A DNA stretch of 63,809 bases, filler included, from Microthyrium microscopicum (taxonomy: Eukaryota): assembly GCA_010405405.1 (NCBI GenBank). It is 8 parts of 5 records of this genome, joined end to end, with 100 filler letters (N's around TTAATTAATTAA, not from the genome) between each part and the next. Parts side by side here need not be neighbours in the genome. Positions count along the whole stretch, not along the records: positions 22,377 to 44,829 come from MU004249.1; positions 44,930 to 47,102 come from MU004249.1; positions 47,203 to 56,225 come from MU004250.1; positions 56,326 to 58,115 come from MU004252.1; 4 more parts are not named here. One strand, 5' to 3'. Below are positions 22,277 through 58,115 of this stretch, one piece after another (the stretch's first letter is position 1; every line of letters begins with the position of its first letter). A program made the translations under genes and the position numbers. The notes beneath the pieces are model-generated. The model had not been told where the DNA came from and did no database searches. It saw nothing but the letters and a program-made list of their open reading frames with translations.

Positions 22277-22376
22277 NNNNNNNNNNNNNNNNNNNNNNNN
22301 NNNNNNNNNNNNNNNNNNNNTTAATTAATTAANNNNNNNNNNNNNNNNNNNNNNNNNNNNNNNNNNNNNNNNNNNN

Positions 22377-22800
22377 TTCTAGTAAATTACTAAATTTTAT
22401 AATATTTAATACTATAAGTATAACGCATAGACTAACTAGGTCTATAACGTTTTAATAACTTATTTTAGTATAATATTTAATACTATAAGTATAACGTATA
22501 GACTAACTAGGTCTATAATATTTTAATTAAAGTTTTAGTAAATTACTAAATTCTATAATATTTAATACTATAAGTATAACGTACAGACTAACTAGATTTA
22601 TAATATTTTAATAAATTGTTCTAGTAAATTACTAAATTTTATAATATTTAATACTATACGTATAACGTACAGACTAACTAGCTCTATAATATTTTAATAA
22701 AAGTTCTAGTAAATTATACTTTATAATAATTAATATTATAAGTATAACGTTTAGATTAACTAAATTAACGTATTTATAATGTTTTAATCTAGTACGTATA
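22377..22800. repeat. Tandem repeat, ~5 units of ~71-85 bp
   Basis: ACTATAAGTATAACG.A.AGACTAACTAG recurs at ~22411, 22482, 22567, 22652 and 22735. Confidence 0.85.
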
Positions 22801-25794
22801 ATATTTAGAAAAGGTAGTAGCTATTATAAAGCTAATTATAGTAGTAGTATATAATCTAGAATCCTTTATATACAAAATATATTAGATTTCTTTTTACTTT
22901 TAAATTAGTAGTATATATAATCTAATTATTATATTCCTATTTAAATATATATAGTAGTGTTATATATAACCTAGTAGTTATAATATATATACTATTAAAA
23001 TAGTAGCTATTATATATAATCTAGAATACCCTATAAGTAAAATATATTAGATTTATCTTTATAGTTAAATTAGTAGTAAATATAATCTAATATCCTATTC
23101 TAATTTAAATATATATAGTCGTATTATATATAACCTAGTAGTTACTATATCTAGAATAAATTAGTAGTAGCTATTATAAAGCTACTTATAGTAGTAGTAT
23201 ATATAATCTAGAATACTCTATACGTAAAATATATTAGAACTCTATTTATGTTCAAAGTAGTAGTATTATATATATATAGTAGACGTTCATAAGCTAGAGT
23301 TAGGTTAGTCTATACGTAAAATATTAGACTACTAAAAGTTTATATTTTTAGTAGAGAGATACTTCTATACCTCTATAATACCTCTAATACCTACTTAATA
23401 AATATACTCTAAAGCTTATATTACTTAGGTTAACGTTCTCTATTAAATATATATAATTTTATATAATATAGTACTCTTATTAAGTAGATAGATCTAATAG
23501 TATAAAGTTAGGACTTAGTAAAANNNNNNNNNNAGTAGCTATTATAAAGCTAATTATAGTAGTAGTATATAATCTAGAATCCTTTATATACAAAATATAT
23601 TAGATTTCTTTTTACTTTTAAATTAGTAGTATATATAATCTAATTATTATATTCCTATTTAAATATATATAGTAGTGTTATATATAACCTAGTAGTTATA
23701 ATATATATACTATTAAAATAGTAGCTATTATATATAATCTAGAATACCCTATAAGTAAAATATATTAGATTTATCTTTATAGTTAAATTAGTAGTAAATA
23801 TAATCTAATATCCTATTCTAATTTAAATATATATAGTCGTATTATATATAACCTAGTAGTTACTATATTTAGAATAAATTAGTAGTAGCTATTATAAAGC
23901 TACTTATAGTAGTAGTATATATAATCTAGAATACTCTATACGTAAAATATATTAGAACTCTATTTATGTTCAAAGTAGTAGTATTATATATATATAGTAG
24001 ACGTTCATAAGCTAGAGTTAGGTTAGTCTATACGTAAAATATTAGACTACTAAAAGTTTATATTTTTAGTAGAGAGATACTTCTATACCTCTATAATACC
24101 TCTAATACCTACTTAATAAATATACTCTAAAGCTTATATTACTTAGGTTAACGTTCTCTATTAAATATATATAATTTTATATAATATAGTACTCTTATTA
24201 AGTAGATAGATCTAATAGTATAAAGTTAGGACTTAGTAAAAATTCTATTATTAAAATGCTACGTTAGGAAGACTTAGCAAAGTAACTTACTAATAGAATA
24301 CAACCTCTTCTTTAACTATTAGTAACTATACCTACTAAACTAATATCTAATAGCATAATACTACTCTACTTTATAGCTCTATATATTATTTACTTATACT
24401 TACTCTATCTAAAGTTAACTCTCTATTTAATTCTAATAGTCTTAGCAACTTACTCTAAAGGGCTCTTTAAAAACTATAACCTAGCTTTTTTAATATTCCT
24501 CCTAGGCTATAGTTCTTAAGAAGCTTATAGTAATATCTAGATTGCTAATATACTATACTATACCGTGCTATACTATAATTAAGCTAAAAGTTAATAGTCT
24601 TAAATAAATATATTCTCTTTACGTACTATAGTTACTAACTATTACAATATAAGACTACTAAATAACTAGGTTATAGACTTTAGATAGCTCTTTAGTACCT
24701 TATTATAAGACTAGGATGTAGTAATAATAGGTACTACCCTAATCTATTATAGTAAATATTAAATAATTCGTATATACTAAAGAAGATAGTATAGATAATA
24801 ATTAAGATATAGAAGATAGAGGAAGGATTATATTATTATAGGGTTTATTAATTTCCTTAACTCTAGCTAAACCCTTACCTAACTCTAAACTAAAATATTA
24901 CTAACTTTACTCTTTAATACTACTACTTTTTCCTACCTAGCAATTATAAAAATACTATTCTCCTATATTCCTTAATAATAAACTCTATACGAAAGGAAAC
25001 TACCTATTCTACTATTAATTATACTAGTTAAAGACTTATAATAGTAATATACTACTTATAAAATATAGTAAAACTATAATAAATATATATATAACTAGCA
25101 CTTTAATAAATTAGCCCTTAGAGGAATAAGTAAGTTTCTAAAAGGACTATAAGATATATTAAAGTAGATGTACTTAATAGAGCTTAACATTAATACTAAT
25201 CTTATTATACTAACTAACTAAAGTAACTTAGAATATATCCTAGAAAAACTTAGAGAGTTATTAAGTAATAAGCTCTTCTATTCTATTAATAATACTACTT
25301 TATATATACTCTATATTCTTCTACTATGCAAACCTTCTTTAGGTCTATTATACTTTTAGTATTAATACTACTTAGATATAAATGCTTAGACTTATAAAGC
25401 GTTAAAGCGTATTAAGATATAAGAGTATAATAATAAGGATAAATTTACTAGTCTATATAAGATTAGTAAGTATATTAAAGTAGTTCCTATTACTTAGTAT
25501 GAAATCACCTTATATTATCCTTACCTAATAATTATCTAGTAAATTATATTAGCTACGAAATTCTATATGCCCTTACTATTTACTTACTATATAACTTTAG
25601 CACTATATCTTGCTAGATATTAATAACTTCTATAGTATATTTTCGTTTTAGGACTTACATTACCTCTTTAATATTAATAAAGTTATATACGCTAATTATA
25701 GAGGAATTTAGCTATTTAATTTTAATATATCCTAATATCTACTTATAATTACTAAGATTACCTCTACTTAAAAGTACTACGAAAGTATATAAAA

Positions 25795-26265
25795 TAACCT
25801 CTATCTTTACTAATATAAGGCTAAAAAAGAAATAGATAATATATCTATACTTAGCTCGTTAAGCTACTTATTTTCTATATCTTTTTACTATAGTAAAAAA
25901 AATGTCCTCTATAGGGATTAACTTAGTAACCTTACTACTACTAAGGTTACTAAAATATATAAAATTACCTCTTATCTTTACTAATATAAGGCTAAAAAAG
26001 AAATAGATAATACATCTATACTTAGCTCGTTAAGCCGCTTATTTTCTATATCTTTTTATTATAGTAAAAAAATGTCCTCTATAGGAATTAACTTAGTAAC
26101 CTTGCTACTACTAAGGTTACTAAAATATACAAAATTACCTCTATCTCTACTAATATAAGGCTAAAAAATAAATAGATAACGTATCTATACTTAGCTTATT
26201 AAGCTGCTTATTTTCTATATCTTTCTATAATAGTAAAAAAAACGTCCTCTATAAAGATTAAATAG
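25795..26265. repeat. ~3 x 169-170-bp tandem repeat with small hairpin
   Basis: Units start at ~25795, 25965 and 26134. They contain TAGTAACCTT-actactact-AAGGTTACTA. Confidence 0.9.
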
Positions 26266-26697
26266 GTAACCCTACTACGTATAGGATTTAAACTTATAAC
26301 CTTAACTTTATATAATAGTAGAGTTACGTACTACTATTACGCTAGCGTAGTAAAATTTTAGACTAAATTATAGTACTAAAGTTAAGATAAATTTAGGATT
26401 AGGGTTTATAGTTTTTAAATATATACTACTATATACTACTATTACTAATATTTAGCTACTATCTACCTTAATTTTAGCTCTACCTAAACCCTCTTATCTA
26501 AAATTTATTTAGTAAAAATACGCTAGGGTTAAAATAAACCTAAGAAAATTTTCTAAAAAAATTCCTAGCTATCTACTTTAACTCCTAATACTAATATTTA
26601 GTATCTACTCTTAATACTAAAATCTAATATATACTCCTAGTACCTAGCTCTTATTAGCTTTAACTACTAGTATATATATTTAATATCTACTCCCTAA

Positions 26698-26850
26698 TCT
26701 AGCTCCTAGCTCTTAGCTCTTAGCTCCTAGCTCCTAGCTCCTAGTTCCTAGCTCCTAGCTCCTAGCTCCTAACTCCTAGCTCCTAGCTCCTAGCTTCTAG
26801 CTCCTAGCTCCTAGCTCCTAGCTTCTAGCTTTTAGCTCCTAGCTCTTAGT
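26698..26850. repeat. 7-bp microsatellite (CTAGCTC)n, ~21 copies
   Basis: Directly visible ..ctcctagctcctagctcctag.. Confidence 0.95.
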
Positions 26851-29800
26851 ACTTTAACTCTTATATACGTTAACTCTTATCTACTTTAACTCTTATTTAC
26901 CTTAACTCCTAATACTAATATATACTTAAGTACTTCTCCTTTTAGTATTATAGCTAGTTGCTAAATTAAATTTAGTAGCGCGTCTTAGTAATAAAGCTTA
27001 ATATTAGTTAAAGTATCTCGTTTTTAAAAGTATAAGAATTATACTCTATTCTAATATTATTCTTTATTATTTCTAGATTAATTAACCTTATTTAGAGACT
27101 ATCTTCTATATTTAGGAATAAATGAGAGATAATATATTTAGTAGATATTTCCTAATAATATATTAATCTTATTATAAGACTTAGATAGGGAGCTTAGAGG
27201 CGTATTTATAGATAGATTAGCTTAAGTAAATAATATTTCTAATATTAATTTCTATAAGGTTCTACTATTACCTTAGGTATAAAAATACCTCTTAGTATCT
27301 ACGTATTTATCTATATTTACTTTAACTCTTAATACTAATATTTAATATTTCTTTCTAGTTTCTAGCTTCTATACTTATATATAAAGTTAACTATTATTCT
27401 TAAAGTAGTACTAATTTACTATACTACCTATAAAGATAATTATAGTATTACTTACGCGCTAGCTAAGCCTAATATATATATTACCTATATTTATAGCTTC
27501 CTCCTTTGCTTTTTTTATTCTATACTTCTCTCTTTTTCTTTTACTCTATTACCTTTATCCTTTTTTCTTCTACTCTTTACTCTCTATAATAGTTTATATT
27601 ATAGTAATATATAAAATAAGTAAATAAGTAAGTTAATTTTATATAGAAAGTCCTATTATATATACTAACCTATAAACTTTATTTTAGCTATATTACTATA
27701 TTAAGTACTTAGTAAGACTTTATAGTTAAGGCTTTTAATATTATTAATTAGGAAGTAAGCGTACAAAGTACTATAGTATATATACTAATAGTAAGATTTA
27801 ATAATAGTATATTCTATTTATATCTAGCTATTAATACTTATAATATAGCTATCTAGTTACGCTTTTATAGTAAAACCTAATATAAACATAGCCTTATTTA
27901 GTTATAGTAGCTATATAATTAAAGTTATTATTAATATCCTTAATAATTAGCCTAATTTTACTATAGACTATAATAGTATTAATTATAAAGTTAGCTATAA
28001 TAGATACTATTTACGTAGTACTAGAAAATACTTTTATATTTATTTTTACGTAAGTAATTTATAGAAACTTAACGTTTAATGAGCTATTACTAAATATAAT
28101 ACGTAGACTATTAGCTAGAAATAGTTAAGTAGCTAGCTATAGTTTCTTATTTATATATAAGTCTAAACTAAAATTATATCTTAGTTAGTACTAATACTAT
28201 ACTAGTACTAAGGTTATCTAGTAAAAACATAATAACTCTATAGCCTCCTTTAGTAATAAAGCTAAGTATATACTAAACTCTAAGATTACCTTAAAACTAC
28301 TATAAATAATAAAAGTAGTTACTAAATAACTAGCTAGAAACATAATAGCATCTAACGCCTAGGGCCCTTAAAACTAAAAGTTTAAAGTACTTTATCCTAA
28401 TAGAAAAGTCTATTAAATAAATTCTTAAAATATTAGCTTTTAAGTCTTAATAATTAGTACTATTTATATAGATAGTATAAGCCTAATTATAGATAAAATA
28501 TATCTTAAAACCTAAATAATAATAATAACCTAGTACTAAAGTTATAATTTAGATTATAGTTTAGAACCTAAGTAATAAAAATTAACTACTTATTAACCTA
28601 TATAGATAATATAAAACTATAACTTAGTATAAAATATATATTAATCTTATACTATAATTCTATTATATCTTCTTAAGGTAATAATAAAAGAAGCATAAAA
28701 TATTATTATATTTATTTAAATTAAACCTTAAAGGTATATAAAACTTATAACCTAGTATAATATACTACTTTAGGATTATACTTTTTATATATTCCTTTAT
28801 AGTAATAGTAAAAGAAATATAGTATACTAATTTAGGGTTATAACTTTTATATACCTTTTTATAATAATAAGAAAGAATTATAGTATACTAGTCCTAAGCT
28901 ATAGTTTTTATTTACCTCTTAGGCTTTAGTAGTAAAGAAAGTATAATATAGTATTATACTTATAATAAAAAGAAACATTAAGGCATACGTTATATAAGTT
29001 ATTAATATAAATAAAATCTAAAAACTAGAAGTAGAATAACTATATATATTAGAATACCTAAGACTAAAGGAATCTAGCTTAGAGACACTAGAACTTCCTA
29101 AACTAGAATTTAGTATTTAATTTTTACGTAATAATAGTAGGTAAGAAAAGTTAAAGAACTAGGCTATTACTTACTTAAGATAGACTAGTTACTTAATAGT
29201 AGTCTTATAATAATACTAACGACCTTAAGAACTTACTATACGTTATAATTATAACCTTAATATTTTAATTACTATATATAACAATATAGTAATAGTAAGA
29301 AATACCTTAATACTAGTAAGTAATTTCTAGTCCCTAGGTTAGATATAGTAACTAACTAAGCGTTACTTTACTTTTACTTAATCCTATATAATAAATTAAA
29401 ATATAAATACCTTATATACTAAATCTCTATCTTCCTCTTTTTATATTTACTAATACTTAATCTATATTTATAATATTTATTATTATAAGCCTTGTAAGTC
29501 CTTTACGTAAAGCCTACTACCTATATAAAATAATAGAAGAGCAAATAGAAGAGTAAATAGAAAGGCTAATAAAAGAGTAAATATAGGCTAAACTAGATAT
29601 ACGCCTTAAAGAATTGCTTAGATTTTATAACCCCTTATAATTAATAATCTTACTAGAGCTAATACTAGCTAATATAATAGTATAGGACATTAAATTATAG
29701 AAAGATTTTAATTCTAATAATATAGACTAGCTATATAACTTTATCTAAACGTTTATAATTCTATATATATATAGTTAACCTCCTTAACGTTTTATAACTA

Positions 29801-30314
29801 ATAATAATAATAATAATAATAATAGTAATAATATTAATAGTAACGATAATAATAGTAATAAAGGTCTTAGGTACTTAAATACGTTAGATAAGGATAACTT
29901 AGACTTAGAGGATAATATAGACTTAAAAAGTTTAAGTTTTAATAAAGATTAGAGTTATAACTCTAACGACTAATAGTTATTATAATTTAAGTTAAATTAT
30001 AGGACGATATCTATACTTTAAATACTAAAGTAAATAGATGGATTTAAATTAAGATTAATAAATTTAATATTTAACTTCTTTATTATATTTACTACTAATA
30101 TAACTCTCTTTTGCTAATACTAACTTATAATAATAAGAATATAATAACTCGCTATAGTAATAATCATAATTAAGATATAAATAGATTAAGAATATATATA
30201 AAAATAATACTAGTATAAGTATAAATAATAATAACGTATATAATATTAATAGTTTTACTTAATAAACTATACTTAAAAAGTTAACTAGATTAAACTTCTA
30301 GTACTCTAAACCTC

Positions 30315-30582
30315 TAGCTAACCCTAGGCTAACCTTAGGCTAACCCTAGGCTAACTCTATATATAAGTAGGCTAATATTTAAACCTTAGGCTAGTATTTA
30401 AACCTAGGCTAACCCTAGGCTAACCCTAGGCTAACTCTAGGCTAACTCTAAGCTAATCCTAAGCTAACCCTATATATAGATAGGCTAATATTTAAACCTT
30501 AGGCTAATATTTAAACTCTAGGCTAGTATTTAAACTATATACTAACCTAGGCTAATTCTATATTAACCCTATACTAACCTAA
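30315..30582. repeat. 11-bp repeat (CTAACCCTAGG)n with telomere-like core
   Basis: aaccctaggct units interleaved with tatttaaaccttaggct. A related (TAACCCTATAC)n occurs at ~33735-33800. Confidence 0.85.
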
Positions 30583-31149
30583 TATTTAGTATTAAGAATA
30601 GAATAGGAGGCAATATATAAAAATAAGTTAAATTTCTTAAAAATATATATACTACTTTAGTAGTTCGTATAAATTATAAAATATCCTAGATAAAGCTTAA
30701 GATATATATCTTTAACTTTGCGTAAGAAAGTTTTAATAAAGGTATAATCCTTTATATAATTACTAACCTCTTTCGTAGGCTTAGTTATATATAGTAATCT
30801 AGTTTAATACTATTTTAAGATATTAAACAACTAGTCTAATGTTTACTAGATAGAGCTTACTAGATTAATATTATTATATTAGGTAAATTACTAGTTTAAA
30901 CTATTATTTAATAATTTTTAAACTTATAGAACTTAGTAAACTCTATAGTTTAATCTTAGCACTTAGTAGTAAAAGCACTTTAAGAAGTAGTTTACTTTTA
31001 ATAGTTAATAAGTATAACTAGTTAACGTAAATACTTTATTTACTTAATCTTATTATAAATTTAAGTATAAACTAACTACTAATTTTATAGTTATTAGTAG
31101 AAGTAGCGCGCTTAAGAGTAGCTTTAGTACTACCTACTTTATAAAAAGT

Positions 31150-31740
31150 AGTTCTAATAGTAGATACTATAGTTAAACATTAGTAGAACTCTAATTACTA
31201 TTAAAGACCTTTAAACTCTTAAACTACTTAATTAGCTTAATAATAAAATTATTAATAGCTTTCTTACTAAGCTTTACGAAAAAGCTAAGTTTAAACTTAC
31301 TAAATAGATAAAAATAATAGAAACTCTAATTAAAGATAATATCCCGTAATATTATATACTTAATACCTATTAGTTCCTTAAGATATAACAATAAGATAAT
31401 ATTAAAAAAATTACTTACTAAATAAAGCGCTAAAAAATTAGTAGAAAGAATCTTCTTAGCATTTACAAACTCTTTATTTTAATTTATTAAAGTAGTTACT
31501 AGACCTTACTAACTATTCTTCCTTAATAATATTAAGTACGTTAGTACAACTCTTTATTTACTAGTAAAGAACCTATTCTTACTTTAGCTAAAGAAATGCT
31601 TTAATATAAGTTAGGTAACGCTTAGGATAAGAGTAAATAAATATTTAAGAGAGTAGAGAGTAGTTATTAACAAAACTCTTTAGATTATAGCGCCTTTACC
31701 CTTATAAATACTTAGGCTACCTTCTACCCTAATAACTTAC
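31150..31740 (+). pseudogene. Ulp1/SENP SUMO protease (peptidase C48) catalytic domain relic
   Basis: One frame, de-RIPed: ITVKDLRTL...WLNDEIINSFL (W at 31233); LNTHWF; RW.KR.KI.GKNLL..KLFIPIH.SSHWTL (His codon 31497); YDSL (Asp 31548); QQNSLDCGAF (Cys 31686). Confidence 0.85.
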
Positions 31741-34299
31741 CTAATATTCTTCCTAACTAATATAGTAAAGCAATACAATAACTAACTAGTTCAATTATCC
31801 TTTATAGTAGCTTTAAAGACAACTTTAACTTAGAAGCTTAGCATAATAGCTTTTATTTAGAAACTCTATAAAATATTTCTAACTATCCTTCTTATAAAGT
31901 ATAATATTAGTAGAGAGCTTATCTACTATAAAGGATAGCCTATTCTCTTCTTAACTTAATATACTCTTCTTATTAATATATATATATTCCTAACTAAAGA
32001 TTATCCTTTTATTAATAATATAATCTCTTACTATTACTAGTTCCTATCGTTAGTAATATATCTTATTGTTATAGATATATTCTATTATTATAGATATAGC
32101 CTTTTATTAGAGATATATTAAAAAGACTAATAGCTATAGCTTAATCTACTTTAGTAGTAATTACTATATATAAGTTAGTATAGGATAAGAAAGTTACTAT
32201 TAACCCTAGTCTCTTAGTATAGATTAAGAAGGACTAGCTAGTAGTATAAAAGGAGGTAGATAGTAGTTTCCTAACTTTTAGTCATTTTAATTACCTCTTA
32301 TTAACTATAGTACTTACCTATAAGCTATTCCTTTAAGTATTTATAGTATATCTAACAACTTAGACTTTTTATAAGGAGTAATAAGTATACTTAATATTAT
32401 ACAATTAGACTAGAATAAGCTAAGTATTAGAATAATAGTAGCATTTTAAGAGAGATAGTTACCTAGAGTTATATAAGTATAATATTAATAAAGTTATCCT
32501 AAAAAGTACGTATAATATTAATAAAGTTATTCTAGAAGGCATAATAGCTATAGTATTAACTCTACTATTACTAAGGAAAGAGCTATCCTTTAATACTCTA
32601 CTTTTAGAAGTTTTACTAAGACTAATTTATTATTACTAATATAGCCTACTTATTTACTTAAATAAAGATACTCCTAATACCCTATTCTAGCATTATAAAG
32701 TATAAAGTACATTTTGACTATAGGCTCCTTATAGGTAACTATAATTTAGAGATAAAGTAGGTTTTTTATAGAACTTAATCTTAGCCTAGTTTAGTAATAA
32801 TTGCTATATATAAGCTAGTATAGGATAAGGAAGTAGCTATTAACCCTAGTTACTTAGTATAAGTTAGGAAGAACTAGCTAGTAATAGAGAAGGCTACTTA
32901 TTCGCTCTTAATACCCTATTCTAGTATTATAAAATATAAAGTACAATTTAACTATAGGCTTCTATAGGTAACTATAATTTAGAGATAAAGAGGTTTTCTA
33001 TAGAACTTAATCTTAGCCTAGTATTACTATAGCTACTACGTCCTTCTTCTTTATAGCTACTACGTCCTCTACTACTATATTTACTTTCTTTATCTTAGGT
33101 ATAGTTATAAGTAATATAATCTAGCTTACTATCTATAAGAATAGTTAGTATATTTTGCTTAGTAATAATTACTATATATAAGCTAGTATAGGATAAGGAA
33201 GTTACTATTAACCCTAATATAAGTAGTAAGATAGAATAAGTAATAAGATAGAATACAAAATTAAGGTAAATAAAGCTATTTAAAATAATAAAGAACTTAT
33301 CTATATCTTATAAGTCTCTCCTAATATCTTAACTAATATACTTACTTTCCTATTAGGGTTATTATTCTACTATATACTACTAGTAAAAAACTTATTCTTA
33401 CTTTATTATACCTAGCATTATTAGTAAGATGTATACTAGGTATTAGTAAAGTTAACTATATAACTACTATATAGTAATAAATTCCTAGGCTATAGTTTTT
33501 AGGTATTTCTTAAACTATAGAGTATATATATATTTTAAGTACTATAAAATATAAAGTTAACTATATAACTACTATAATAGTAATAAATTCCTAGGCTATA
33601 GTTTTTAAGTTCCTCTTTAACTAATATAATTAAACCCTTTTAATAATAGTAAAGGTTTAGTAAAGTTAACTCTAGAGCTACTATATAGTATAGAATTTTA
33701 GGGCTATACTTTATAGAGACCTCTTTATATTACTCTATACTAACCCTATACTAACCCTATACTAACCTTATACTAACTTTATACTAATACTACTTAAACC
33801 CTAAACTACTTATACTTATTTTATAGTTAATACTTATTATATAAACTAATATTCCTTAAAATATTAATTTTATATACTATTCTAACCTTACTTATACTAT
33901 TATATATATACTAAATATCTTTACCTAAATATAATACTAAATAGTACTAAGGCTTATCTAAATTCTATTACGTTTAATAGAATAAAACGTTATAATTATA
34001 GTAGACCCTCTTTATAAATTATTAAGAAATTAGTAATCTTATTAAAGAGTAGTAGCTACCACTATATAAGCTTAAAACCTAGATATTATTATCTTAAGCC
34101 CTAAGGGTAGGCAACAATATAGAATATAATTAAGGCTATTTAGGTATAATTAAAGTATACCTCTAGTAGTTATATTATAACTAACTCTAACTAAATTATA
34201 AAAGGTTACATTTAATTTCCTAACTCCTTTACCTATCCTACTACCTTAAGTCTAGATAGTATTAAGTAACTTCCTAAATATAGTTTAAAACTAATAGAG

Positions 34300-44929: not shown

Positions 44930-47102
44930 TATAAAAAAAGTAAAAAAATAGCGTAAGATTAGTATTAAGATAGTTAGTACTATTATATAATAATTCTATA
45001 GAGCTAAATTATATATAAGTTTATCTTCTCTTATTAAATTAAGTATAACTAATACAATTAGGCAATAGAATTATAATAGAAAAGATTTAGTAAAATAAGA
45101 TTTTTTAGTATTAAGGAAGAGTAGGACTATAACTCTAATCTAGCTATTATATCTAAGTAGCACTAAGCTAGTTTATATAGTAAGTAGTACGCGTATCTAA
45201 GTCTTCTTAAGCTACTCTATAGCTATGTCTAGAATTAAGTTAATAAAGAAATAATTTTTTTTTAGCTATTTTATAAAAAAAGGAAAAAATATTATTTATA
45301 ATTATCTAAAAAATTTTATATAACTTAAAATTATATAGAATTTATAGTAATTATTTAAGCTTATACTATATAGTAGTTTTATACTTATATAGTCTTACTA
45401 TACTAAATCTTAATAATTTAATAGTAAGTATTACTTTAGAAATAACGTCCTACTACTATAGAGTAAGTCTTTTTAGTTAAAAGGCTCTCTCTATTTCTTA
45501 ATCTTATATTCTCTAATATAGTATACTTCTATAGCCGTCTAATTTAAATATAAAGCCTACTATACTATTCTTTCCTTAGAACTACTTAAGAAAATACGTA
45601 TAGTAAAATACCTTATAGTAAAATACTTAGTATTTTTCTTATAATATACGCTCTATAGATAACTTATTAGAATATATTAAGATATCTACTCTTTAATAAG
45701 GAGATGCCTTATATAAGGGATTAAGATATTATTTATTAAAATATATTAAGGTATCTACCCTTTATAAGAAAATACTTTATATAAGGGATTAAAATATTAT
45801 TTATTAGAATACATTAAAGTATCTATTTTTTATAAAGAGATACCTTATATAAGAAATTAAGATATTATTTTACTTATTATATATATTTATTTTAGTAAAA
45901 TAAAAAGAATAACTTATAGTTACTTTTTAAAGTACTATTTAATAATTACTTAGCTTTAAGGTAGCTAAAACTAGTAGATATTACTAGTCTAACCTATCTC
46001 TATAACCTAGTCTAGTTTTCTAAATATATAGGTATTAACTAGCTAGAATAGCTATAAAGCCTTTCTATTACTAAGTAGTATTATTTAATACTATATATTA
46101 CTTAAGTAAGTAGAACTTTCTATAATAAAGCTTATTAAGTAGTATATTTATACTAATACTTAGTAAAATTACTATAAGAGCATCTTAATAGATCTTAATT
46201 AATATTAGAACTCTTTTAAGATAATAATATTATAATAATCTTTATAACTATTTATACTTTAGTATTTATTATTAGAAATATTTTATTATACTTCGTTAAT
46301 TACTCTTCTCTAATATACTTTTTAAAGAAAATTAAAATAGTAAGATATTTTTTATATTAATTTTTTTCTTTTAAAAAAAAGTCTTAATATCTTTAACGTT
46401 AATACGTTCTATATTAATATATTATATTACGTTAAATTAATTTATAATAATATAAATAGTTTTTAACTATTAATTAATTAGTATTTTAGTTATACTAAAT
46501 ACTATAACTACTTACTACTTAGAGATACTATATATAGAATATAAATAATATTACTACTCTTTATTAGTTATAGCCTACTATAGACTACTATCTATAATAG
46601 GCTTATTAATAATAACTAATTACCTCCTTATTTAGAGATTTTATCTTATAAATAGGCTTACTAGTTATAATAAAGTAATTCTAGTATACCTTTTAAGTCT
46701 AATTTTATTTTTTCTTTACCTATTTTTCTAATAATACTCTCCTAAGGCTATAATTCTATATAACCTATTATACTTACGTAGTAGTTATACTTTAAGTTAG
46801 GGTATAGTAATTAGGTTATTCTATATATTAGAGGAGCTTACGTTTTATAATATAGAGGAAAGTTAGTTAAAAACTAGTATATTATTTAAATACTATCTAA
46901 ACTAAATACTAGTAAGTTAGCAATTAAGAGGAAGGTTACTTAAAAACTAAAGCTAACTACTATAATTTTTTACTATAATTTTTAATTAAACTAGGCTATA
47001 TAAAGACTTTCTAATATTATTATAGCCTTATTATTATTATATATAGAGATAATTCTACATAATACCTTATATCCTTAAGAAGTATAAGTACTATATTAAG
47101 AA
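44930..47102 (+). repeat. Interspersed repeat copy B (contains the empty SINE target site at 46232-46250)
   Basis: Collinear with 12288-13614 joined directly to 14848-15699. Confidence 0.9.
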
Positions 47103-47202
47103 NNNNNNNNNNNNNNNNNNNNNNNNNNNNNNNNNNNNNNNNNNNNTTAATTAATTAANNNNNNNNNNNNNNNNNNNNNNNNNNNNNNNNNNNNNNNNNN
47201 NN

Positions 47203-48520
47203 GACTATAAGTATAATATTAAATTATATAATAAAGAGCTAGTTAAAAACTATAACTATAAAATATACTACTATTATAGTACCTAAATATACCTTCTAGT
47301 ATAACTATAGTAGGAAGGAATATATATATAATAAAGAGCTATATTAAAACTATAACCCTAAAATTTACTATAAATATAATAGCTAAAAATATATAGAATA
47401 GGTAGAATTATATAGATAATAAAGGACTATATAAAACCTATAACCCTAAAATATACAACTATTATAATAGCTAAAAAAGTCTAGTAAGGAAATAATAAGG
47501 AGGAATATATATCTAAATAAAGGGCTATATAAAGATTATAACCCTAAAATAACTAAATTTATATATAGGAAAAATAGCTCTAGGAAAAGAATAGTAGAGA
47601 GGAATATATACCTAATAAAGGGCTATATAAAGACTATAACTTTAAAATAACTAAATATTTATAGAGTTGTAACCTTTATTTAATAATTTAAAGTTAAAAC
47701 TTACTTCTTAATATTTCTAGGTTGTAGCTTTTAGATAGTGCCTTTAATATAGAGTATATTATTAGAAATATTTATTTATTTAAGCTAGTAAAGCCCCCTT
47801 TATTACTTATTATTATTATAATAAGAAGTAGCTATATATATTTAATTTACTTATTACTTTCTAAAATAGTAGTTTGCTATAAGGCTTAGCGTTATGAAAT
47901 ATCTAACCTACGTAATTCCTATTATACCTACTTAAAGTAGTATATACTAGGTATTATATTAGGTAATTATAGGTTATAAAACCTTAGAAACATTAATAGG
48001 GCTAGGATTAAGCTAAAAACCTCTAACTATTTAGTCTTAATTTTTTCTAAATCTTCTTTAAACTACTCTATTATTTATTTCTATATTTTGGCCTATATTA
48101 ATTTCTTAGGTTATAGTTTTTAGTAGCCTTTTATAGCTCTTCTACCTACTTTACTGCTTATCTTTAAGTTACTAATAAAATGTATAATAATTCCTACTTA
48201 TTTCCTAGATTATATATTTTAGTAGCTTCTTAACTATTCTAGTAGCTTCTTTCCTATACTTCCTAGGGTATAGTCTCTAGTAGGCTATTAATATTTTACT
48301 AGCTTCTTTTTTCTATTTCCTAGGTTATAGTCTTTAGTAGGCTATTAGTATTTTACTAGCTTTTTCTCTCTACTTCTTAGGTTATAGTTTTTAGTAGCCT
48401 ATTAGTATTTTACTAGCTTTTTCCTTCTACTTCCTAGGTTATAGTTTTTAGTAGCCTATTAGTATTTTACTAGCTTTTTTTATCTACTTCCTAGGTTATA
48501 GTTTGTAATAAGCTCTTAGC
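47203..48520. repeat. Oppositely oriented arrays of the AAAACTATAACC(C)TAGG motif
   Basis: About 7 copies read ACTATAACCCTAAAA on + at 47203-47650. About 8 copies read CCTAGGTTATAGTTTT (~57-bp period in the core) at 48025-48520. Confidence 0.85.
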
Positions 48521-48615
48521 TACTATTCCCTTTTATTCCTACCTCTTTTTAGTTATTATTTTCTTAGTTATATTTTATTTAGATAAGTAGGTAGTTCTTT
48601 ATTATACTTAGCAAA

Positions 48616-49734
48616 ATGTCTAGTAATAACTACTCTTCTATAAGTATAGCTAAAAGTATATAAGGTTAGCTAGTAACTACTATAAAGAAGGTAAATATAA
48701 CTAGTAAAAAGACTAAAGCTTTAGATAAGAAGGTTAAGTCTAACACTACTAGATTAATTATTAACGTTAAACTAACTAAAGAGTAGACTAAAGTGACTAA
48801 AGCTAAATCTACTAAAGCTAAGGTTATAAAGAATAATAGCTAAAAAGTTTAGATAGAACGAATTGCTAAAATATTAACTATATTATAAGATAAGCGTAGT
48901 TTAGTATCTATCCTTTTACTACTAATAACTCCTACTAGTTCTATATAAGTAATAATTATTAATAATATTAGTAGTATTATTCCTTTAGCTATACGTAGAT
49001 TATAGCTACTACCTCTAATACCTTATAACTAAATTAACTATATTTTTATCTCTTTAGTATACTAGGATACTATCTTTTTAACTATATAATTAGACTAAGA
49101 ATTTAGATTTCTATATCTATTATCTAACTCTCTAATAGTCCTTTAACTAGATTATTTTAATATCTATACTAATATATAAAATTTTATTAAATACCTCTTT
49201 AGAATAGACAGTATAATTAAAAGAGTACGACTCTATAACTAATAGTATAAGCTAATTTATATTTATAGCGTATTATATTATATTAAGATTACTTAGGCTA
49301 TTTACTCTAAGTATAAAGTATTAGTTAAAAAGGTAGTAAATAATATATCTTTTAAGATAGCTTAAGGTATAAAATATAGTAATAACTAGGCCTTATAGAA
49401 AAGATAGAAAGATTGCTTTTATTAAAAAGCGTTAAATTTTAGAACTAAGTAGAAGTTTAAATAGAACCCTAATTTTCTTATAAAGCTTATAGTAACTAGG
49501 GAATTAAAGATTAAATTTACTAGACTTAATAAGGTTAATATAGTTAGCCTTAATTAAGATGCTATAATCTATTATCCTATTATACTATTATAGCTTAGTA
49601 ATAATATATATAAAGTAGCTATTATCTTTATTAGATATAAAGAAGCTTGTTGTCTATAGTTTAAGGAGGAAGCTATAGCTAAAAAATAAGAAGAAGAAGA
49701 AGTAGTAGCTATAGAGAATAGAGAAATTATCTAA
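48616..49734 (+). pseudogene. Low-complexity N-terminus + NADAR/YbiA-like C-terminal domain relic
   Basis: ATG at 48616, one frame. De-RIPed: FGFLHPLSN; K.L.K.V; W...W; KFKQNP.FL.KLM.TG (49453); IEFAGPD; WLGDN.YG.A....R (49591). This resembles the NADAR pattern KF.QN..L...L..TG...EAS..D..WG.G...G.N.LG..LM..R, but the EAS/WG segment is divergent. Confidence 0.5.
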
Positions 49735-50844
49735 ATCCTCTCTTTTATAGTAACTAAGATATACTTATATTATATAATTTATAGTAACTATAATTCTAAC
49801 CTAACTATATAATATCTTATCTTTATTATAATAAGTATAAAAAACTAAATAATAATAATATTAATAATTATAATAACTATATTAGTAATAATAGATAAAT
49901 AAAAAAAGAAACGAAAAGAATAAATAATAAAAGTTAGTTAGTATATAGAAAGAGTTATAAGGCGGATAATATATAGTAGTAAACTACTTAGCCCTATTAA
50001 TTAAATATAAAAATTTGTACTATACTTATATATTATTTAATAGCGATTAACCTATTATTTATCCTAATAATACTATTATATAAGAATAATATAAATTTAA
50101 TATATTAAATATCTTCTTAAGAATTAGTAATAAGTTTTAAATCCGTTAGAGAGAATATTGCTATCTAGAAGGATAATATAACTTACTATAGAATATAACT
50201 TTAGAATTATAAATACTTAAATAAAATAAGATATAGAGTAGATTTAAATTACTAATAGATATATACTATTTAGAGTCTATAACCCTAGAATATAGGTCTT
50301 ATACTATAATTATATATAGTTATTCTTAATACTATAAATCTAGTACGCTAATACTTAGCTTTTACTATCTTATATTTTTATACTCTTATATTCTAGTATA
50401 GGTAAGGGTAACTACTATTATACTCTATCTTACTCTATATCTATATTAAAATACTACTATCTACTTAATATATTATACCTTCTCTTTTTAGGGATTATTT
50501 ACTAAGTTTTTAAATATTAGAAGGTATATATTAATATCTAGTAAAATATTTATTTATAGGTCTATTAAAAAAGTATAAAGCATTTTAAGTTTATAGTTTC
50601 TTTATCATTTTTTTATAATTCTTTATAAATTCTAAAGTTTAGTTTAAGTAGATAGGCTTTAAAATTCCTAAGTTATAGTCTATAGCTAGCCTATTATATA
50701 TATTTAAAACCTTCCTACTAAAGTTATTACTCTATACTTCTTTTTAACTCTTTCCTACTACCTTATTATCTATTTTAAACCTAATATTAATTAATAAAAC
50801 TATATTTACTCTATATTATCTACTTTCTATAGTCCTAGCTAAAA

Positions 50845-51280
50845 TCCCTAGGCTATATATTTTAGGTATTCTATTACTTAGCCTACCTCTTCTAATTTTA
50901 TATCCTAATTTCTTAGGTTATAGTTTTTAAGTTTCCTTTACTTAGGTTTTCCTTTTCTCTTACTTAGCCTAATTTCCTAAGTTATAGTTCTTAGCTATCC
51001 CTTATTTAATTTTATATTTTCTCCTCTTATAGCCTAATTTCCTAAGTTATAAATCTTAAGTATCTCTTATTTAATTTTGTATTTTCCTCTCTTATAGCCT
51101 AGTTTCCTAGATTATAAATCTTAGTTATCTCTTCTTTAAGTTTATATTTTTCTCTCTTATAGCCTAGTTTCTTAAGTTACAAATCTTAGTTATTCTTTCT
51201 TTAAGTTTATATTTTTCTCTCTTATAGCCTAATTTCCTAGATTATAAATTTTAGCTATTCTTTTACTAAATTATAGTTTC
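50845..51280. repeat. ~7 x 64-66-bp tandem repeat containing the CCTAGGTTATAG motif
   Basis: TTATAGCCTAATTTCCTAAGTTATAAATCTTAG.. recurs at ~50900, 50965, 51030, 51095, 51160 and 51225. Confidence 0.85.
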
Positions 51281-51299
51281 CTATAAAATATACGTTCTC

Positions 51300-53851
51300 T
51301 ATTATACGTATAGTAGTAAATGTAAATAACTCTAAAGATAATAATAAATTAGTAATATTTTATTTAGGCCTAAGTTAGTAACCTATATATTAAATAGCTT
51401 ATAAAACTCTATTAGCTAGTAGTATATAACTTATAGTAAAAGTAGCTTATAAAGCTTTAGTAGGTAGTAGAATGTAACCTATAGGTAAAAAGCTTTGTAA
51501 ATCTTTACTAAATACTATTTTTAATATTATATTAAAACTAGATAAAGCTATAAAGAAAATATATAGAAAAATAAAATTCTTAATAAAAAAGGTAAAGGAC
51601 CTTAGTATAATACTAGAATGAGAAAATATAAATTAAAAGTAATCTTAAGAAAGTAAGCTAGGTATAGTAAATAAATATCTTAATATAATTAAGGTTAAGT
51701 ACCTAGACCTTAAAATTACTAAAAGTAATAATAAGCTTAAAATTTAAGTAACTAAGAGAAACCTATACTAAATAACTAAATGCAAATATTAATTATATTA
51801 AAGTTCTAATAAGGATAAATATAAAGATAATACTAATTATTAACTAGATAAACCCTTTTGTAAGCATAAGTAAGCTACTTAGTAAACTAATTATACTAAC
51901 GTAGATAAGGATAAAGATATTAATATAATAGGTATACCTTTAATATATAACTTAGCTAGCGTCGTAGTAGTTCCTAAACTTAGCTAACTTTCTATAGAAG
52001 ATTAGCTAAAAGGGTATATTAGTTACGTAAAAGTTACTATAAACGTACTATAACTCTATTTTTAGCATTATTCTTTCTATTAGTTTAGCTATATTAAATA
52101 TTACTATATATTAATTACTTATTCTAAATTATAAAAGCTATAGCTAAAAATAATTAAGTTTAAAGATTAATTAAAAATATATATATAGTCTAATAAATAG
52201 AAGGAGTCTATAGTAGTAAAAGGATATATAATGTTTAAAGTACTTAAAGGATTAGATAGTTTATACTAGTAGGTATATAGTAGCACCTTAAGTAATTAAG
52301 AGCTAGCTTTATATCTTAGTTTAGACTTACTATACGCTAAAGATTTAGAGGAGTTTATAATAATATAAGGTATATATTATCTAACCTATATTAACTTAGA
52401 CTTATTTACTAATAGTAATCTAGTATAAGCTAACGCTAGTATATATCTTTAGTTTATATAGATATTATAGAATATAGACGTAAAAGGCGTAACTAGGTAA
52501 GCTTACACTATATCTATAAAACTCTAAATTATCTCTATACTCTAGATTCTTTATAACTCTTTAGAAAATAATACTATTTAATAGTTAGTACTTAATACTT
52601 TATATTATTAATTTCCTATCTAGTACCTAAACTAGCTAGCTAATTATAAGTAAGACTATCCTATTAAGTTTAAAAATAGTAATAGGCTAAAACCTATAAA
52701 TCTAATTAAGTTAGTTATTTATATTCTTTACTACTTTATTTAAGCTAAATCTAAAATATTTAATAAGGTTTATTAATTTAAAGATATAAATATAATGTAT
52801 CTATATAGTATAAATTATATATATAGTATATCTATTAAGGATTAGAACTAAGTATTATTTACTCTTAATTATATTATTAATACTATTAAGAAAAATCTAT
52901 ACTTATTTCTAAATTAGAAATAGAAAATTGCTAAGTATAGTAAATTAGATCCTTTTAAGGATTACTAAACTATATAGAACCTTTTTACTACGTCCTATAG
53001 TAATATTAAACGCAATTTTGCTATATAGTAGTAAAAGGATCTATTTAGTATAAATAATAAAGATAATCTAGATAATAATAATATAACTTATATAGTTATA
53101 AATAATATTAAATATAAAGTAGTATTAGAAACTTTATATAGTAATAGTATTATTCTTAGAGTAGGCAGTATAGGTATTTTACTAGATAGTAATATACCTA
53201 ATATAGGCCTAAATTTAAAGAACTAGTTAATAGAGGAAATTTCTAAGATAGTATATACTATAAAAAATATAAAGAGTGCTATAAAAAAATAGCTTACTTA
53301 TTATTTCTAACCTATAGCTTGCGCGGCTATAATTAAGTAATTATTAGCTCTATAAGTTAAATAGGTTAGTCCTTTAGTTATAGATATATAGGAAGTTAAG
53401 TATTAGGCTAACGTTAAACGTATTTAGTATAGCTTAGGTCTTTCTAGTACTACTATTAATTACTATTCTTAACTTTTGTATTTAGATAAAGTAGTAACTA
53501 ATTAGTACGCTACTATAGTACGTAAGTTTAGTAAACTTATAATTAATTAAGCTATAGGTACTAAGATAAGTAATAAAGAAAAAATTATGCTTAACTAGAC
53601 TATTAGTTAATTAAAATTAGTAGTATAGAATATTATAGTATAGGAGATATTAGATTATACTATAAGTTTTAAAGTAGCTTTAAAAGTACTAGAACGAGAT
53701 ATACCTAATAATATTCTAAATACTTATTATTATACTATAGAAGAGGGTATATATCCTTTAGGAAACTATAAATTAGATAAGCTTAGCTATATAAATCTAT
53801 TTAATTATAGTAATAATCCTATAGTTACGCCCTTAGTCTCTTAAATAATTA
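51300..53851 (+). pseudogene. Long (~850 codon) single-frame RIPed ORF of unknown function, possibly the 5' exon of the SNF2 gene
   Basis: The same frame is protein-like at 51601 and 52981, and its stops are explicable as RIPed Gln/Trp/Arg codons. It ends at a GTAAGT donor-like site at 53852. Confidence 0.45.
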
Positions 53852-54029
53852 GTAAGTTTTTAACTTTATCCTTACCTTAGTAATACCTTACTAGTAAATA
53901 TACTACCTAGGAATATTAGAGTATATCTAGTATATATATTCTTAGGTTATATATTATATCTAGTCCTAGTAATATAAATTAAATTCTTCTTCTACTTTAC
54001 TTATAACTTATTACTAATTTTATATTTTA

Positions 54030-55380
54030 GATATAGCTATTATCTATAAATTAGTTAATTGCCCTACTTATATAGCTTTAATAGTAGGTAAGATAAGTTT
54101 AAGTAAAACTCTAACTACCTTTATAGTAGTAAAGATATATATTAATATATACGTCTAAAAAATATATAATATAATTATAAATAATCCTACTCTAGAAGAT
54201 ACTAAACTTTATACTCTAACTATTATAGTTTATTTAGTTAGTATAAATATATTATAAGAAAGTAATATAGGTAATATATAACCCCTAGTTTATTTACTAG
54301 ATCTTTTGCTTACTAGAGAAGTTTAATATATTAAGGTTAATAAATAGAGCTTTCTTCTCCTATGCTTTACCTAATAGTATAAATAAGCTAAGTAGCATAA
54401 AGGTTCTACTTAGTTTAAGTTAATTCTACCTAGTATGAAATAGTTTAATAAATAGCATAATACTAATATTAATTATACTAAAGAAGAAATAGAGTATTTA
54501 ATTATTCTAGTTTTATAAACTACTTTAATAGCTTATACCTTTACTACTTTAAAGCTTAGTAATACTATACTAGAAGTAAGCCCTAAACGATACTAATATA
54601 ATAAAGTAAAGCTAGATATTAATAATATTAAGAGTAATTTAGCTAAATAAACTAATACTACTACTAATAATAATATTAAGATTAGCTTAGTTATTAAAGA
54701 TATAGATGCTATTATAGCTACTAAGTAGAAGGTAAAGATAGCGTAGATAGAAGAAGATAGTAAAGTATTATTTTATAACTCTAAATTAGAAAATAACTGT
54801 AAGGACTAGAAGAAAAAGATAGAAGACAAAACCTAATAACTAGTTTTTTAGTAAACTAGTAACCTAAAACTATAATGAATTATTATTAACGAAATATACT
54901 ATATTAAAAATAAAAAATCCTTAAGTTTTTATAGTATAAGTAATTTTCTAATATTACCTAGCTGTCTAAAGTATATTATTAGCCTTTCTAGTACTCTAGT
55001 GCTTAATAAAATCTAGTTACTTAATATATATCTTAAAATAGAATAAAATGTAATATAGTAGTTTATAAATAACTAGATAAGCAATATAGAAATTCTACTT
55101 AGCTTAGAGGAATTGCTTGCTATATATAATTATAATTTTAACCTAAAATACCCNNNNNNNNNNNNNNNNNNNNNNNNNNNNNNTAAGTCTCTAGCTAATA
55201 CCTAGTATTTATAGATTATAAACTTAATACTTTTTAAATAGACATTTAAGGCATTAGAAAATAGTTCTTATAATAAGATTAGGTTATTAGTCGTTAAACC
55301 TATCTTATAATAGATATAAACTTAGTAGTTAATAACTATAGTTATAAATAATAGAGTTAGATCTTGCTACTTAAGAGATA
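54030..55380 (+). pseudogene. SNF2/SWI2-family ATPase relic (middle part lost in gap)
   Basis: One frame, de-RIPed: ALMAGEMGLGKT (54075-54110); RII(I/V)DEMHHIKN (54876-54911); GLSGTPVLN (54981-55007). After the gap: ..LVFMD......IQGIGR.., resembling helicase motifs V/VI. Confidence 0.75.
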
Positions 55381-58003
55381 ATAAGCCTAACCTAGTTTCT
55401 ATAATTATAAGTTTACTTTATATTATATACTAATTAATCTACTTACTATCTATCTAGAACGTAGTAAAAACTATAGCCTTAGAAAAATATATAAATTTTA
55501 GGGTTATAGTTTCTATATAGCCTTTTATTTATAAGATATTTATATAATATTTTAGGGTTATAGTTTCTATAGGGCTCTTTGTCTTACTTTATAGTACTAA
55601 TTATAATAGAAGTATTAGCTAACTTATAAGTAGTTTATAATTAACTTTTATAACTAGTAAGATTATAATACTTATAATAAGTATTAGGATAATACCTATA
55701 CTTATATTATTAGTTTAAGTTTTAATAAAGAAAAAGAGGATAATTAATTTAATATTACGTATATTAACTCTATACTTCTCTACCTATAGGATGTTACTAC
55801 TATAGGTAATTAATTTAAGAACTTTTAGTTACCTACTACTAATAAAGAGTAACTATTAACAAATTATATAGAAATAGTTAAAATTTTTTATTATAGTTAT
55901 ATTATAGGGTTTAGGCATTAAGGCTTTATTAGTAAGTAATATATTATAAGTACTAATAGTACTACTCTATATAGTCTAATATAAGAGGTAATTTAGGATT
56001 TAGCTTAGTATAATCTATATAAGGGTAGTAGCGTTTTTCTTTTATTAACTAGTATAAATAAGTATATACCTTTATTAACTAAGCTAATATAGGTAGTAGA
56101 GTATATTACTAATTATTTAAATAAGATATAAGCTATTATAGTAATAGTTTATAAAGCTATAACTAAAGGTTAGAGCTAATAGTTAGATACTAATAAAGTT
56201 AAGAGTACTACTAAAGAAGAGTAAANNNNNNNNNNNNNNNNNNNNNNNNNNNNNNNNNNNNNNNNNNNNTTAATTAATTAANNNNNNNNNNNNNNNNNNN
56301 NNNNNNNNNNNNNNNNNNNNNNNNNATAAATTAAGTATAAGAAACTATTTAATAATTAACTTAGCCTTATTCTTATATAGAATAAACTTATCTATATTAA
56401 ATAGTTCTATTTTATTATTATTAAAGTTATATAAAAGACGTTTACTATCTAACTAACTATAATTAATTAATATATTATAAATAAGGAAGATTTAATATAA
56501 TTTAAACTAAGCTTAAGTCTTATTAATATATATAATACTATTATTATATATTTACTTTATATTAGGCTAAGAAGGTTTAAATTTACTATTATAATTATAC
56601 TTAGAAGCCTTTTCTTTCTTCTTAGTTTAAGTAGTATTCTTTTTAATTTCCTTAAATTTAGAAAGCTCTAAAGAAAAGTAGCTAGAACTTAATAATTTAA
56701 TATAGTTATTATTAGTATTAATTTAGGTACTATTAATAAATTTAACTTTATTAGTTACTTTTTTAATAGTATTAATATTAATAGAATTAGCTAGTTTTAT
56801 AATATTAGTAATTAGAGTTTTTAGTAAAGTAATAGTATCTTTAAAAACCTTAAAGATATTCTTAGAAACTTTAAAAGTATTAGATAGAAATAGACTAAAT
56901 TTATTTAAAGCTTTATTAACTCTTACTTTATTTTTTATAGTAGCTATTAAAGAGAATAGGTATAAAAAAATATAAAGTATACTAAGTAAATTTATAAAAA
57001 AGCTACTAGTAAAATATTAAAACTACTAGCTAAGACTTATTCTTATACTATAGCTCTATTTATAAAAATTAGCTTTATTTAGTTAGTTAGGATTTACTTA
57101 GGTATATACTTTAATTCTATAAAAGTAAAATAAAAAAGAATTAAAAAAAGTATATAATTATAAGATTAAATATACTTTATTTAATATCCTTTTACCTAAT
57201 TAAGTTAATAGAGAATAAATACTTACTTTATTAAGTACTTCTTATTAAGGAAAGCTTTAATATTAATCCTTACTATAAGTAAAGATTCTAAAGAGAAAAG
57301 TTATTCTTAAGGAGTAATAACTTATAGATTAAGTAAGTTTAAGGTAATAGCCTAAGGAAACTTAAAAATACTTAAGTTCTTAATAAACTTAGATAAACCT
57401 AAATAGGTACCTAATAGTAATATTTAGCTTTATAAATTATTATTTAAGAAGTATTTCTTTAAGTAACGTTTAAAACTAATAATAAGTTTACTAAGATTTA
57501 TTAAGATTATTATTTAGCTAGCTAGATAGTAGCTAAGTAATTTATACTATTATAATATAATATACTCTAAAGTATATTAGTACTATTAGAATATAGTTAA
57601 CTCTTTAAAGATTTATAAGAATATTTAAGTTCTTATTAGAGAAATAATATTAGGAATTAAATCTAATAAACTTTTTAAGATAAGTATTATAGCCTAAGTA
57701 CTTTAGCTTAATAGCTATTAGAAGCTAGTAAAGCTATTTCTTTAGCTTTAGTATATTTTATAATTAAGAAAATTAATAGGTTTTTAACTATTATAATTAG
57801 TAGCTAAGTATACCTTTAAGGTATTTTAGCTTATAGATAAACTACTTTAGCTTAAAGAGGAACCTTAAAAGTTCCTAAGTAATAAAATAGAGGCTAAGGA
57901 ATCTTCTTATAGTTTTTTAGTAATTATTCCTATTCCTATTTCTATATACTTAATCTATTTAAGTATCTTATAACTTTCTTACCTATTCTATAACTCTAAT
58001 CTT

Positions 58004-58115
58004 TAATAAATAAATAATAGAGTAATAAATAATAGAGTAATAAATAATAGAGTAATAAATAATAGAGTAATAAATAATAAAGTAATAAATAATAAAATAA
58101 TAAATAAATAAATAA
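58004..58115. repeat. 15-bp tandem repeat (TAATAAATAATAGAG)n running into gap
   Basis: Directly visible, ~7 copies. Confidence 0.9.

Follow-up and report, generated by a model that had tools for sequence, protein, structure and literature searches.

The stretch of DNA analysed here, hereafter the window, comprises 63,809 bases of the fungus Microthyrium microscopicum in eight contigs. Two of these, contigs A and C (Table 1), hold the remains of genes set among tandem-repeat arrays in DNA heavily altered by repeat-induced point mutation (RIP): an Ulp1-like (peptidase C48) protease relic in contig A and, in all likelihood, an SNF2-like ATPase relic in contig C. An initial annotation, made from the sequence alone, had taken both contigs together as the relic of a single giant mobile or virus-like element of more than 30 kb, densely packed with genes for an Ulp1 protease, an SNF2 ATPase, a NADAR-like protein and several large unknown open reading frames (ORFs). 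The analysis presented here addresses the identity of these relics, the way in which the two contigs are joined in the window and the kind of repeated DNA to which they are likely to belong.

Standard searches recover no gene family from either contig. With stops read as X, six-frame Pfam searches of both contigs yielded no family at E <= 0.1 in any of the 18 translations, and at E <= 10 the eight chosen stretches returned only DUF1269, at a noise-level E of 0.12. Likewise, a PDB phmmer search with positions 53802-55151 gave no match, word-based protein searches with the SNF2-like stretch (against longer proteins) and with the longest coding-like frame, of 840 codons, found none, and an exhaustive phmmer search with the same frame retrieved none of 1.84 billion proteins at E <= 0.001. 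A RIPed copia-type pol gene elsewhere in the window (5900-9997) served as a control for these searches. Pfam reports its RVT_2 domain at 3.6e-40 and does not report its integrase core, from which it follows that domains of middling strength vanish from Pfam after RIP.

Family motifs were read as sets of residues reachable through C-to-T and G-to-A changes and were then chained in order, and RIP-aware profiles were obtained by passing hmmbuild emissions through a RIP codon model, with log-odds taken against the six-frame composition of the window and alignment by the Smith-Waterman method. The seeds were proteins excised from public loci that degenerate DNA patterns had retrieved, and they were subsequently checked. 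A viral scan for the Ulp1 C-box gave two usable loci out of 15, and a metagenome scan was taken for the Ulp1 seeds, all 27 of which pass PF02902; as for the 58 viral SNF2 seeds, each matches PF00176 (E <= 0.001) and 57 have a Helicase_C match as well. K/E/N-rich, low-complexity translations at about 8300-8360 and 21240-21390 (both on the + strand) were the top false matches of the SNF2 C-lobe, UBC and NADAR profiles, and a non-RIPed island near 14 kb provided further false top matches of profiles at noise level. In view of such low-complexity matches, RIP-aware scans need a shuffled-profile control on the real sequence.

The RIP-aware Ulp1 profile aligns over 167 columns (70-236 of 265) to a stretch of contig A with a score of 63.0-63.7 bits, against 22.6 +/- 2.3 (maximum 29.2) in 25 Markov-simulated windows and a mean of 31.2 (maximum 38.4) for 30 column-shuffled profiles on the real sequence. 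A composite C48 motif has a single match, at 31233-31700, and none in 200 simulated windows, and the score of the four-motif chain (55.2) was reached by none of the 100 permuted-motif controls. In the alignment, Trp becomes a stop in the WLND motif, His-Trp becomes Tyr-stop, Asp becomes Asn, Gln becomes a stop and Cys-Gly becomes Tyr-Ser, the changes of RIP type falling on the catalytic residues His, Asp, Gln and Cys themselves. Read through RIP classes, the His, Asp and Cys residues and the oxyanion Gln stand in order downstream of a WLND..IN motif, spaced as His-17-Asp-46-Cys with the Gln six residues before the Cys, a spacing that, like the residue numbers, we take to be that of the canonical C48 enzyme. 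The PF02902 gathering score is not reached, the 233-residue stretch giving no Pfam match even at E <= 10, as is to be expected of a RIPed pseudogene. The relic is short and isolated, and its frame is full of stops upstream of about 31170. The presence in contig A of an Ulp1-like relic of a SUMO/ubiquitin-like protease, as read by eye in the initial annotation, is verified.

For SNF2 ATPases the motifs tested were I, Ia, II (DExH..KN) and III (TGTP..N), with their consensus confirmed from the 58 viral proteins. In contig C motifs I, II and III and an Ia-like stretch occur in order and in one frame, motifs I and III with one mismatch each and motif II exactly, in RIP classes. The chain of motifs scores 44.8, a value reached by none of 12 simulations (Markov windows, 23.8 +/- 3.3); elsewhere in the real window, over 185 further blocks, scores do not exceed 26.5, and position-shuffled motifs on the real window reach 44.8 in none of 200 cases (mean 25.3, maximum 35.2). 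Other results are less favourable. The single motifs are at chance level and the distance from motif I to motif II, 267 residues, is unusually long. The whole N-lobe profile is not significant (score 36.0; shuffled columns, mean 30.6 and maximum 39.7), nor is a two-half chain (45.5 against a maximum of 48.3), and for the C-lobe (motifs IV-VI) both the profile and motif VI stay at noise level. An SNF2-like N-lobe relic is thus likely, though not proven, at this place: of the SNF2 ATPase that had been proposed, the ordered motif chain stands, and the N-lobe as a whole and the C-lobe do not.

The third named gene fares worse. A composite of NADAR motifs (SNF / EH..QA.K / D..WG.G) has no match, and two RIP-aware profiles, built from 119 YbiA-like and 117 viral proteins, are at null level in the region, with low power against a divergent fungal NADAR. 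For E2/UBC enzymes the RIP-aware profile is at noise and the motif chain at chance. A RecQ motif chain, reached by one of 100 controls and unconvincing by eye, was rejected, and motif chains for tyrosine recombinases and integrases were reached by 11 and 96 of 100 permuted controls, respectively, and are put down to chance. Six-frame Pfam searches found no capsid, DNA polymerase B, packaging ATPase or integrase, and RIP-aware profiles were not built for capsid or polymerase. The transposase, capsid and termini that had escaped the initial annotation were not found here either, sensitivity being low after RIP.

Coding statistics do not bear out the dense packing of genes. The best low-stop stretch of the region scores 11.8, against a mean of 8.5 and a maximum of 11.4 in 40 simulations and 64.3 for the copia element. 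A codon-periodicity model trained on copia flags about one fifth of contig A and two fifths of contig C, mostly on the + strand and with 8-10% stops. All six stop-free ORFs of at least 100 residues in the region lie inside a run of 387 N, and with coding signals this weak the several large unknown ORFs are not substantiated either.

That the region is fully RIPed, on the other hand, is confirmed. Between 22 and 56 kb the GC content is 0.18-0.25, the (CA+TG)/(AC+GT) ratio 0.05-0.15 and the TA/AT ratio 1.5-1.85, so that CpA and TpG are depleted and TpA is in excess, and copies differ by transitions without indels, all of which are marks of RIP-mutated repeats. In the neighbouring copia element, inspection by eye places in-frame TAG stops where the profile expects Trp and in-frame TAA stops where it expects Gln; a variant genetic code was considered and rejected, since these stops fit RIP changes from Trp to TAG and from Gln to TAA.

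The diverged duplicate segments that had been noted are equally real, in three pairs, and tell a different story from the one first proposed. In all three, the first copy stops at a gap of 10 or 11 N and a second copy of equal length begins directly after it, which points to unmerged overlapping contig ends rather than to structure of an element. The first pair is assembly redundancy. The other two differ almost wholly by transitions, without indels, and would therefore be overlapping ends from different RIP-diverged copies. What differences remain in these two pairs fall mainly at C/T before T and at G/A after A rather than in the classical CpA context, which suggests that CpA sites were already exhausted in both copies.

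The way in which the window is put together bears directly on the proposal of a single element. Its eight contigs are separated by seven identical spacers, each made of 44 N, TTAATTAATTAA and 44 N, and the spacer is a six-frame stop linker of the type used to concatenate contigs. As the spacers are artificial, adjacency across them carries no information, and the candidate 34-kb unit starts at the first base of contig A and ends at the last base of contig C. Between the two lies an unrelated contig, which blastn and tblastn show to be a copy, at 90-93%, of two stretches of another contig, 12288-13614 and 14818-15699. Contig A is itself a scaffold, the longest truly continuous piece of which is 23534-37480. 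No DNA match of at least 250 bp, and none at the protein level, connects contigs A and C, which have only motif matches of 40-115 bp in common. The apparent 34-kb unit is a product of contig concatenation and of scaffolding that stitched together different repeat copies, and the artificial linkers, the foreign contig and the lack of shared sequence beyond the motif all tell against a single transposon or virus-like element of more than 30 kb.

The search for copies covered contig C. The SNF2-like stretch is present in four DNA runs from a single sample, which probably gave rise to the assembly, and the assembled contigs of these runs were aligned to contig C, those of its stretches for which no long aligned pieces are listed being uninformative. 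In one run (X1), 366 contigs align to contig C, 161 of them at >=99% identity, 75 at 95-99% and 130 at 90-95%, with up to seven different contigs over one place. Transitions account for 751 of the differing places (C>T 189, G>A 135, A>G 175, T>C 252) and transversions for 31. Contig C therefore belongs to a family whose several copies have diverged by RIP, and the initial annotation was right to call this DNA repeated. At sites where the window has A or T, many of the copies retain G or C, which makes a de-RIP consensus feasible. Loose ends of the aligned contigs lie at many internal places of contig C, the copies being therefore mosaic, and some fall close to the arrays, at 47302 and 55677; from 55151 and 55153, others extend for 23-94 letters into the N gap (55154-55183), which may thus hide sequence.

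One contig of a second run (X2) passes from 47635, in the 98-bp array, directly into four TTAGGG units: on this single short observation, one or more copies of the contig C repeat would end a chromosome, capped by telomere repeats. Contigs of three runs join 53112 to 55184 with five other letters between, skipping the SNF2-like stretch, the shorter side of the joint being 25 letters; the joint may reflect a genuine copy that lacks these 2.07 kb, or else an artefact of repeats. This and other contig joints, with short sides of 21-25 letters, were discounted as evidence.

The tandem-repeat blocks of the initial annotation are present in both contigs: Tandem Repeats Finder (TRF) reports 20 rows for contig A and 7 for contig C, with about 11-13% of each contig covered. 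The motif family said to be common to both contigs also holds. Its core, CTATAACCCTAAAA, has 15 matches with at most two mismatches where 5.6 are expected, a number reached in none of 100 shuffles, and all 15 fall within contigs A and C, though the motif is short, extending to about 35 bases, and the matches represent only about nine independent sites. At 30309-30536, 600 bp upstream of the Ulp1-like relic, lies another array, with a period of 11 bp (CTAACCCTAGG/CTAACCCTAAG) and telomere-like CCCTAA units.

Table 1. Coordinates in the window of the contigs, linkers, gene relics, arrays and duplicate pairs discussed in the text.
Feature	Position	Strand	Remarks
Ulp1-like (peptidase C48) pseudogene relic	31194-31712	+	contig A; RIP-aware profile of 27 seeds
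SNF2-like ATPase N-lobe relic (likely)	54078-55007	+	contig C; motif I at 54078, Ia-like at ~54190, II at 54879, III at 54984; one frame
Longest coding-like frame	51298-53817	+	840 codons, ~9% stops; periodicity model; no relative found
Left array	47230-47650	+	about five 98-bp units with the ~35-bp motif
Right array	55480-55607	-	pair of motif units in inverted orientation to the left array (72-84% complementary)
57-bp tandem array	48190-48547		related CCTAGGTTATAG core
65-bp tandem array	50898-51263		related core (TRF)
61-bp tandem array, contig A	28756-28917		related motif; matches 55465-55571 at 71%
Duplicate pair 1	22816-23523 / 23534-24241		708 bp, 99.86% identity, 1 mismatch; flanks 10-N gap
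Duplicate pair 2	36575-37480 / 37492-38397		906 bp, 94.4%; 50 of 51 differences transitions, 0 indels; flanks 11-N gap
Duplicate pair 3	41215-42825 / 42841-44451		1611 bp, 92.2%; 122 of 126 differences transitions, 0 indels; flanks 10-N gap
Contig A	22377-44829		scaffold of five sub-contigs; N gaps 23524-33, 37481-91, 38726-39112 (387 N), 42831-40
Contig C	47203-56225		30-N gap 55154-55183
All contigs	1-10001; 10102-22276; 22377-44829; 44930-47102; 47203-56225; 56326-58115; 58216-61772; 61873-63809
Linkers bounding the region	22277-22376; 44830-44929; 47103-47202; 56226-56325

Taken together, these results make it probable that contigs A and C, unlinked to each other, are both pieces of a landscape of multi-copy repeats that RIP has inactivated and that holds gene relics, of a kind already known. 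Blocks of the genome of this ascomycete-type fungus would once have been duplicated and hence exposed to RIP, and repeated rounds of C-to-T and G-to-A change would have destroyed every reading frame and brought the GC content down to about 20%. What is left in each piece would be dead gene remains between minisatellite arrays, the Ulp1-like relic in contig A and probably the SNF2-like N-lobe in contig C, along with other coding-like stretches without recognisable relatives; nothing in them would be functional now, and at least one copy of contig C would stand at a chromosome end. Both the SNF2 identity and the origin as duplicated blocks are what we infer from these data, and the blocks would have begun either as transposon cargo or as duplicated host gene clusters. 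The telomere-capped copy is no worse a fit to a repeat block of chromosome ends than to a transposon or a virus.

Several observations weigh against this reading, beginning with the less favourable SNF2 results given above. For contig A, multi-copy status would follow from the gap-flanking duplicates alone. The telomere link consists of one 25-letter loose end, in one contig of one run, and the window itself contains no telomere repeats and no enrichment of CCCTAA hexamers. The exclusive occurrence of the ~35-bp motif in contigs A and C hints at relatedness or former neighbourhood of the two, and the motif arrays that lie inverted towards either end of contig C are possible termini of a DNA transposon.

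The last of these points leads to the alternative that survives best, though we regard it as unlikely: that ordinary DNA transposons left a mosaic of separate relics in the region, contig C being an element of about 8.4 kb with inverted subterminal arrays and the Ulp1-like relic a protease module of the MULE/Zisupton type. The left and right arrays do lie inverted and about 8 kb apart, contig C is multi-copy and some of its copies diverge at 47302 and 55677, close to the arrays, all of which is congruent with such an element. However, the same motif also occurs in internal arrays and in both orientations, so that the arrays are not simply terminal, and no transposase was found by Pfam. Moreover, the frame of the Ulp1-like relic is not continuous with an upstream ORF, being closed by stops before about 31170 and preceded by the 11-bp array.

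The original proposal, in which contigs A and C are parts of one repeated cargo transposon or virus-like element of more than 30 kb with genes for a SUMO protease and a chromatin ATPase, now RIPed, appears improbable. It can draw on the motif family common and exclusive to both contigs, on their same build, with coding-like stretches mostly on the + strand between arrays, and on the multiplicity of contig C. It lacks, on the other hand, any physical link between the contigs, which are kept apart by linkers and a foreign contig, and the copies present many different breakpoints instead of two clean ends. In addition, Pfam finds no transposase, recombinase, polymerase or capsid in any of the 18 translations, which at this low sensitivity is weak evidence of absence, and the tyrosine-recombinase and integrase chains do not rise above chance. 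Slightly less probable still is a related version in which the two contigs are fragments of a large multi-copy element residing at, or moving to, chromosome ends with SUMO-protease and SNF2 genes of its own; if true, it would be a telomere-associated cargo element with SUMO and chromatin genes, a type not yet described in fungi and of real interest. As for the idea that there are no gene relics at all and that the resemblance to a protease and an ATPase is due to chance in AT-rich sequence, it is very improbable: the empty Pfam, PDB phmmer, word-based and exhaustive phmmer searches, the chance level of single motifs and the non-significant SNF2 profile all fit it, but it must contend with an Ulp1 match over 167 columns whose 63.7 bits far exceed the shuffled maximum of 38.4, with the exact spacing of the catalytic residues and of the Gln at Cys-6, with an ordered SNF2 chain matched by none of 200 controls and with the loss from Pfam, after RIP, of the copia integrase core.

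Ulp1/C48 protease modules occur in DNA transposons of the MULE and Zisupton/KDZ groups. The present case resembles these in that a C48 module lies inside repeated DNA, and differs from them in that no transposase domain was found beside the protease, and no fusion ORF or termini were found. Starships are giant, cargo-carrying, multigene fungal transposons with defined ends and a tyrosine-recombinase 'captain' at one of them. The candidate unit would be Starship-like, that is, large, cargo-carrying and multigene, only as the initial annotation pictured it; in contrast to a Starship, it shows no captain by Pfam or by motif chain (both of low sensitivity) and no defined ends, and its contigs are unlinked. 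No fungal element combining Ulp1, SNF2 and NADAR was found in the literature searched, which is weak evidence of absence.

Closer parallels are provided by RIP-degraded repeats of other fungi. X3X3R8 of Stagonospora (Parastagonospora) nodorum is a RIPed cluster in nine copies, made up of Rad5/SNF2-like helicases, an E2 enzyme and unknown ORFs and brought to light only by de-RIP (Hane & Oliver 2010, PMC3017866). Compared by description, contig C is likewise a multi-copy, RIP-degraded block with an SNF2-like relic that is recognisable once RIP is allowed for; unlike X3X3R8 as described there, it yields no E2/Rad6 relic, and the Ulp1-like relic lies on another contig. In a similar vein, Ulp1 genes in duplicated accessory regions have been reported for S. 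nodorum (PMC8146201). Filamentous-fungal subtelomeres, in turn, are described in a preprint as carrying multi-copy blocks of 8-19 kb, with helicase genes, next to telomeres and in some cases with nearly pure C:G to T:A divergence (bioRxiv 10.1101/721753). The contig C repeat is akin to these blocks in being multi-copy and of RIP-type divergence, with one array copy capped by a telomere. The blocks of the preprint carry genes of the DEAD/Helicase_C type, whereas the contig C relic would be an N-lobe of the SNF2 type, and, unlike theirs, the telomere adjacency of contig C is seen in one short loose end.

Elsewhere in the window, three further features were observed. The copia-type retroelement mentioned above has its RIPed pol at 5642-9982 (+) and also gives Pfam matches to gag, pre-integrase and SH3-like domains. 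At 13615-14817, a GC-normal, non-RIPed island of about 1.2 kb interrupts a RIPed repeat, the other copy of which, at 44930-47102, is without the island. The start of the island (13615-13708) is tRNA-like, scoring 43.8 bits with the Rfam tRNA model and giving no tRNA with ARAGORN, and the island may be a young tRNA-derived insertion resembling a short interspersed element. Finally, a long coding-like stretch at 18500-22276 (+), outside contigs A and C, has a very strong GC skew, of up to +0.5, and a low stop density, with no identified family.

Two lessons of method follow from this case. Profiles passed through a RIP codon model can recover gene relics missed by Pfam, by PDB searches and by phmmer against 1.8 billion proteins, and the Ulp1 call and, in all likelihood, the SNF2 call made by eye in the initial annotation were right where standard tools are blind; at the same time, windows made of concatenated contigs can suggest 'giant elements' without assembly support. 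The biology itself is ordinary: multi-copy blocks degraded by RIP, with relics of helicase-like and other genes, have been on record in fungi since 2010.

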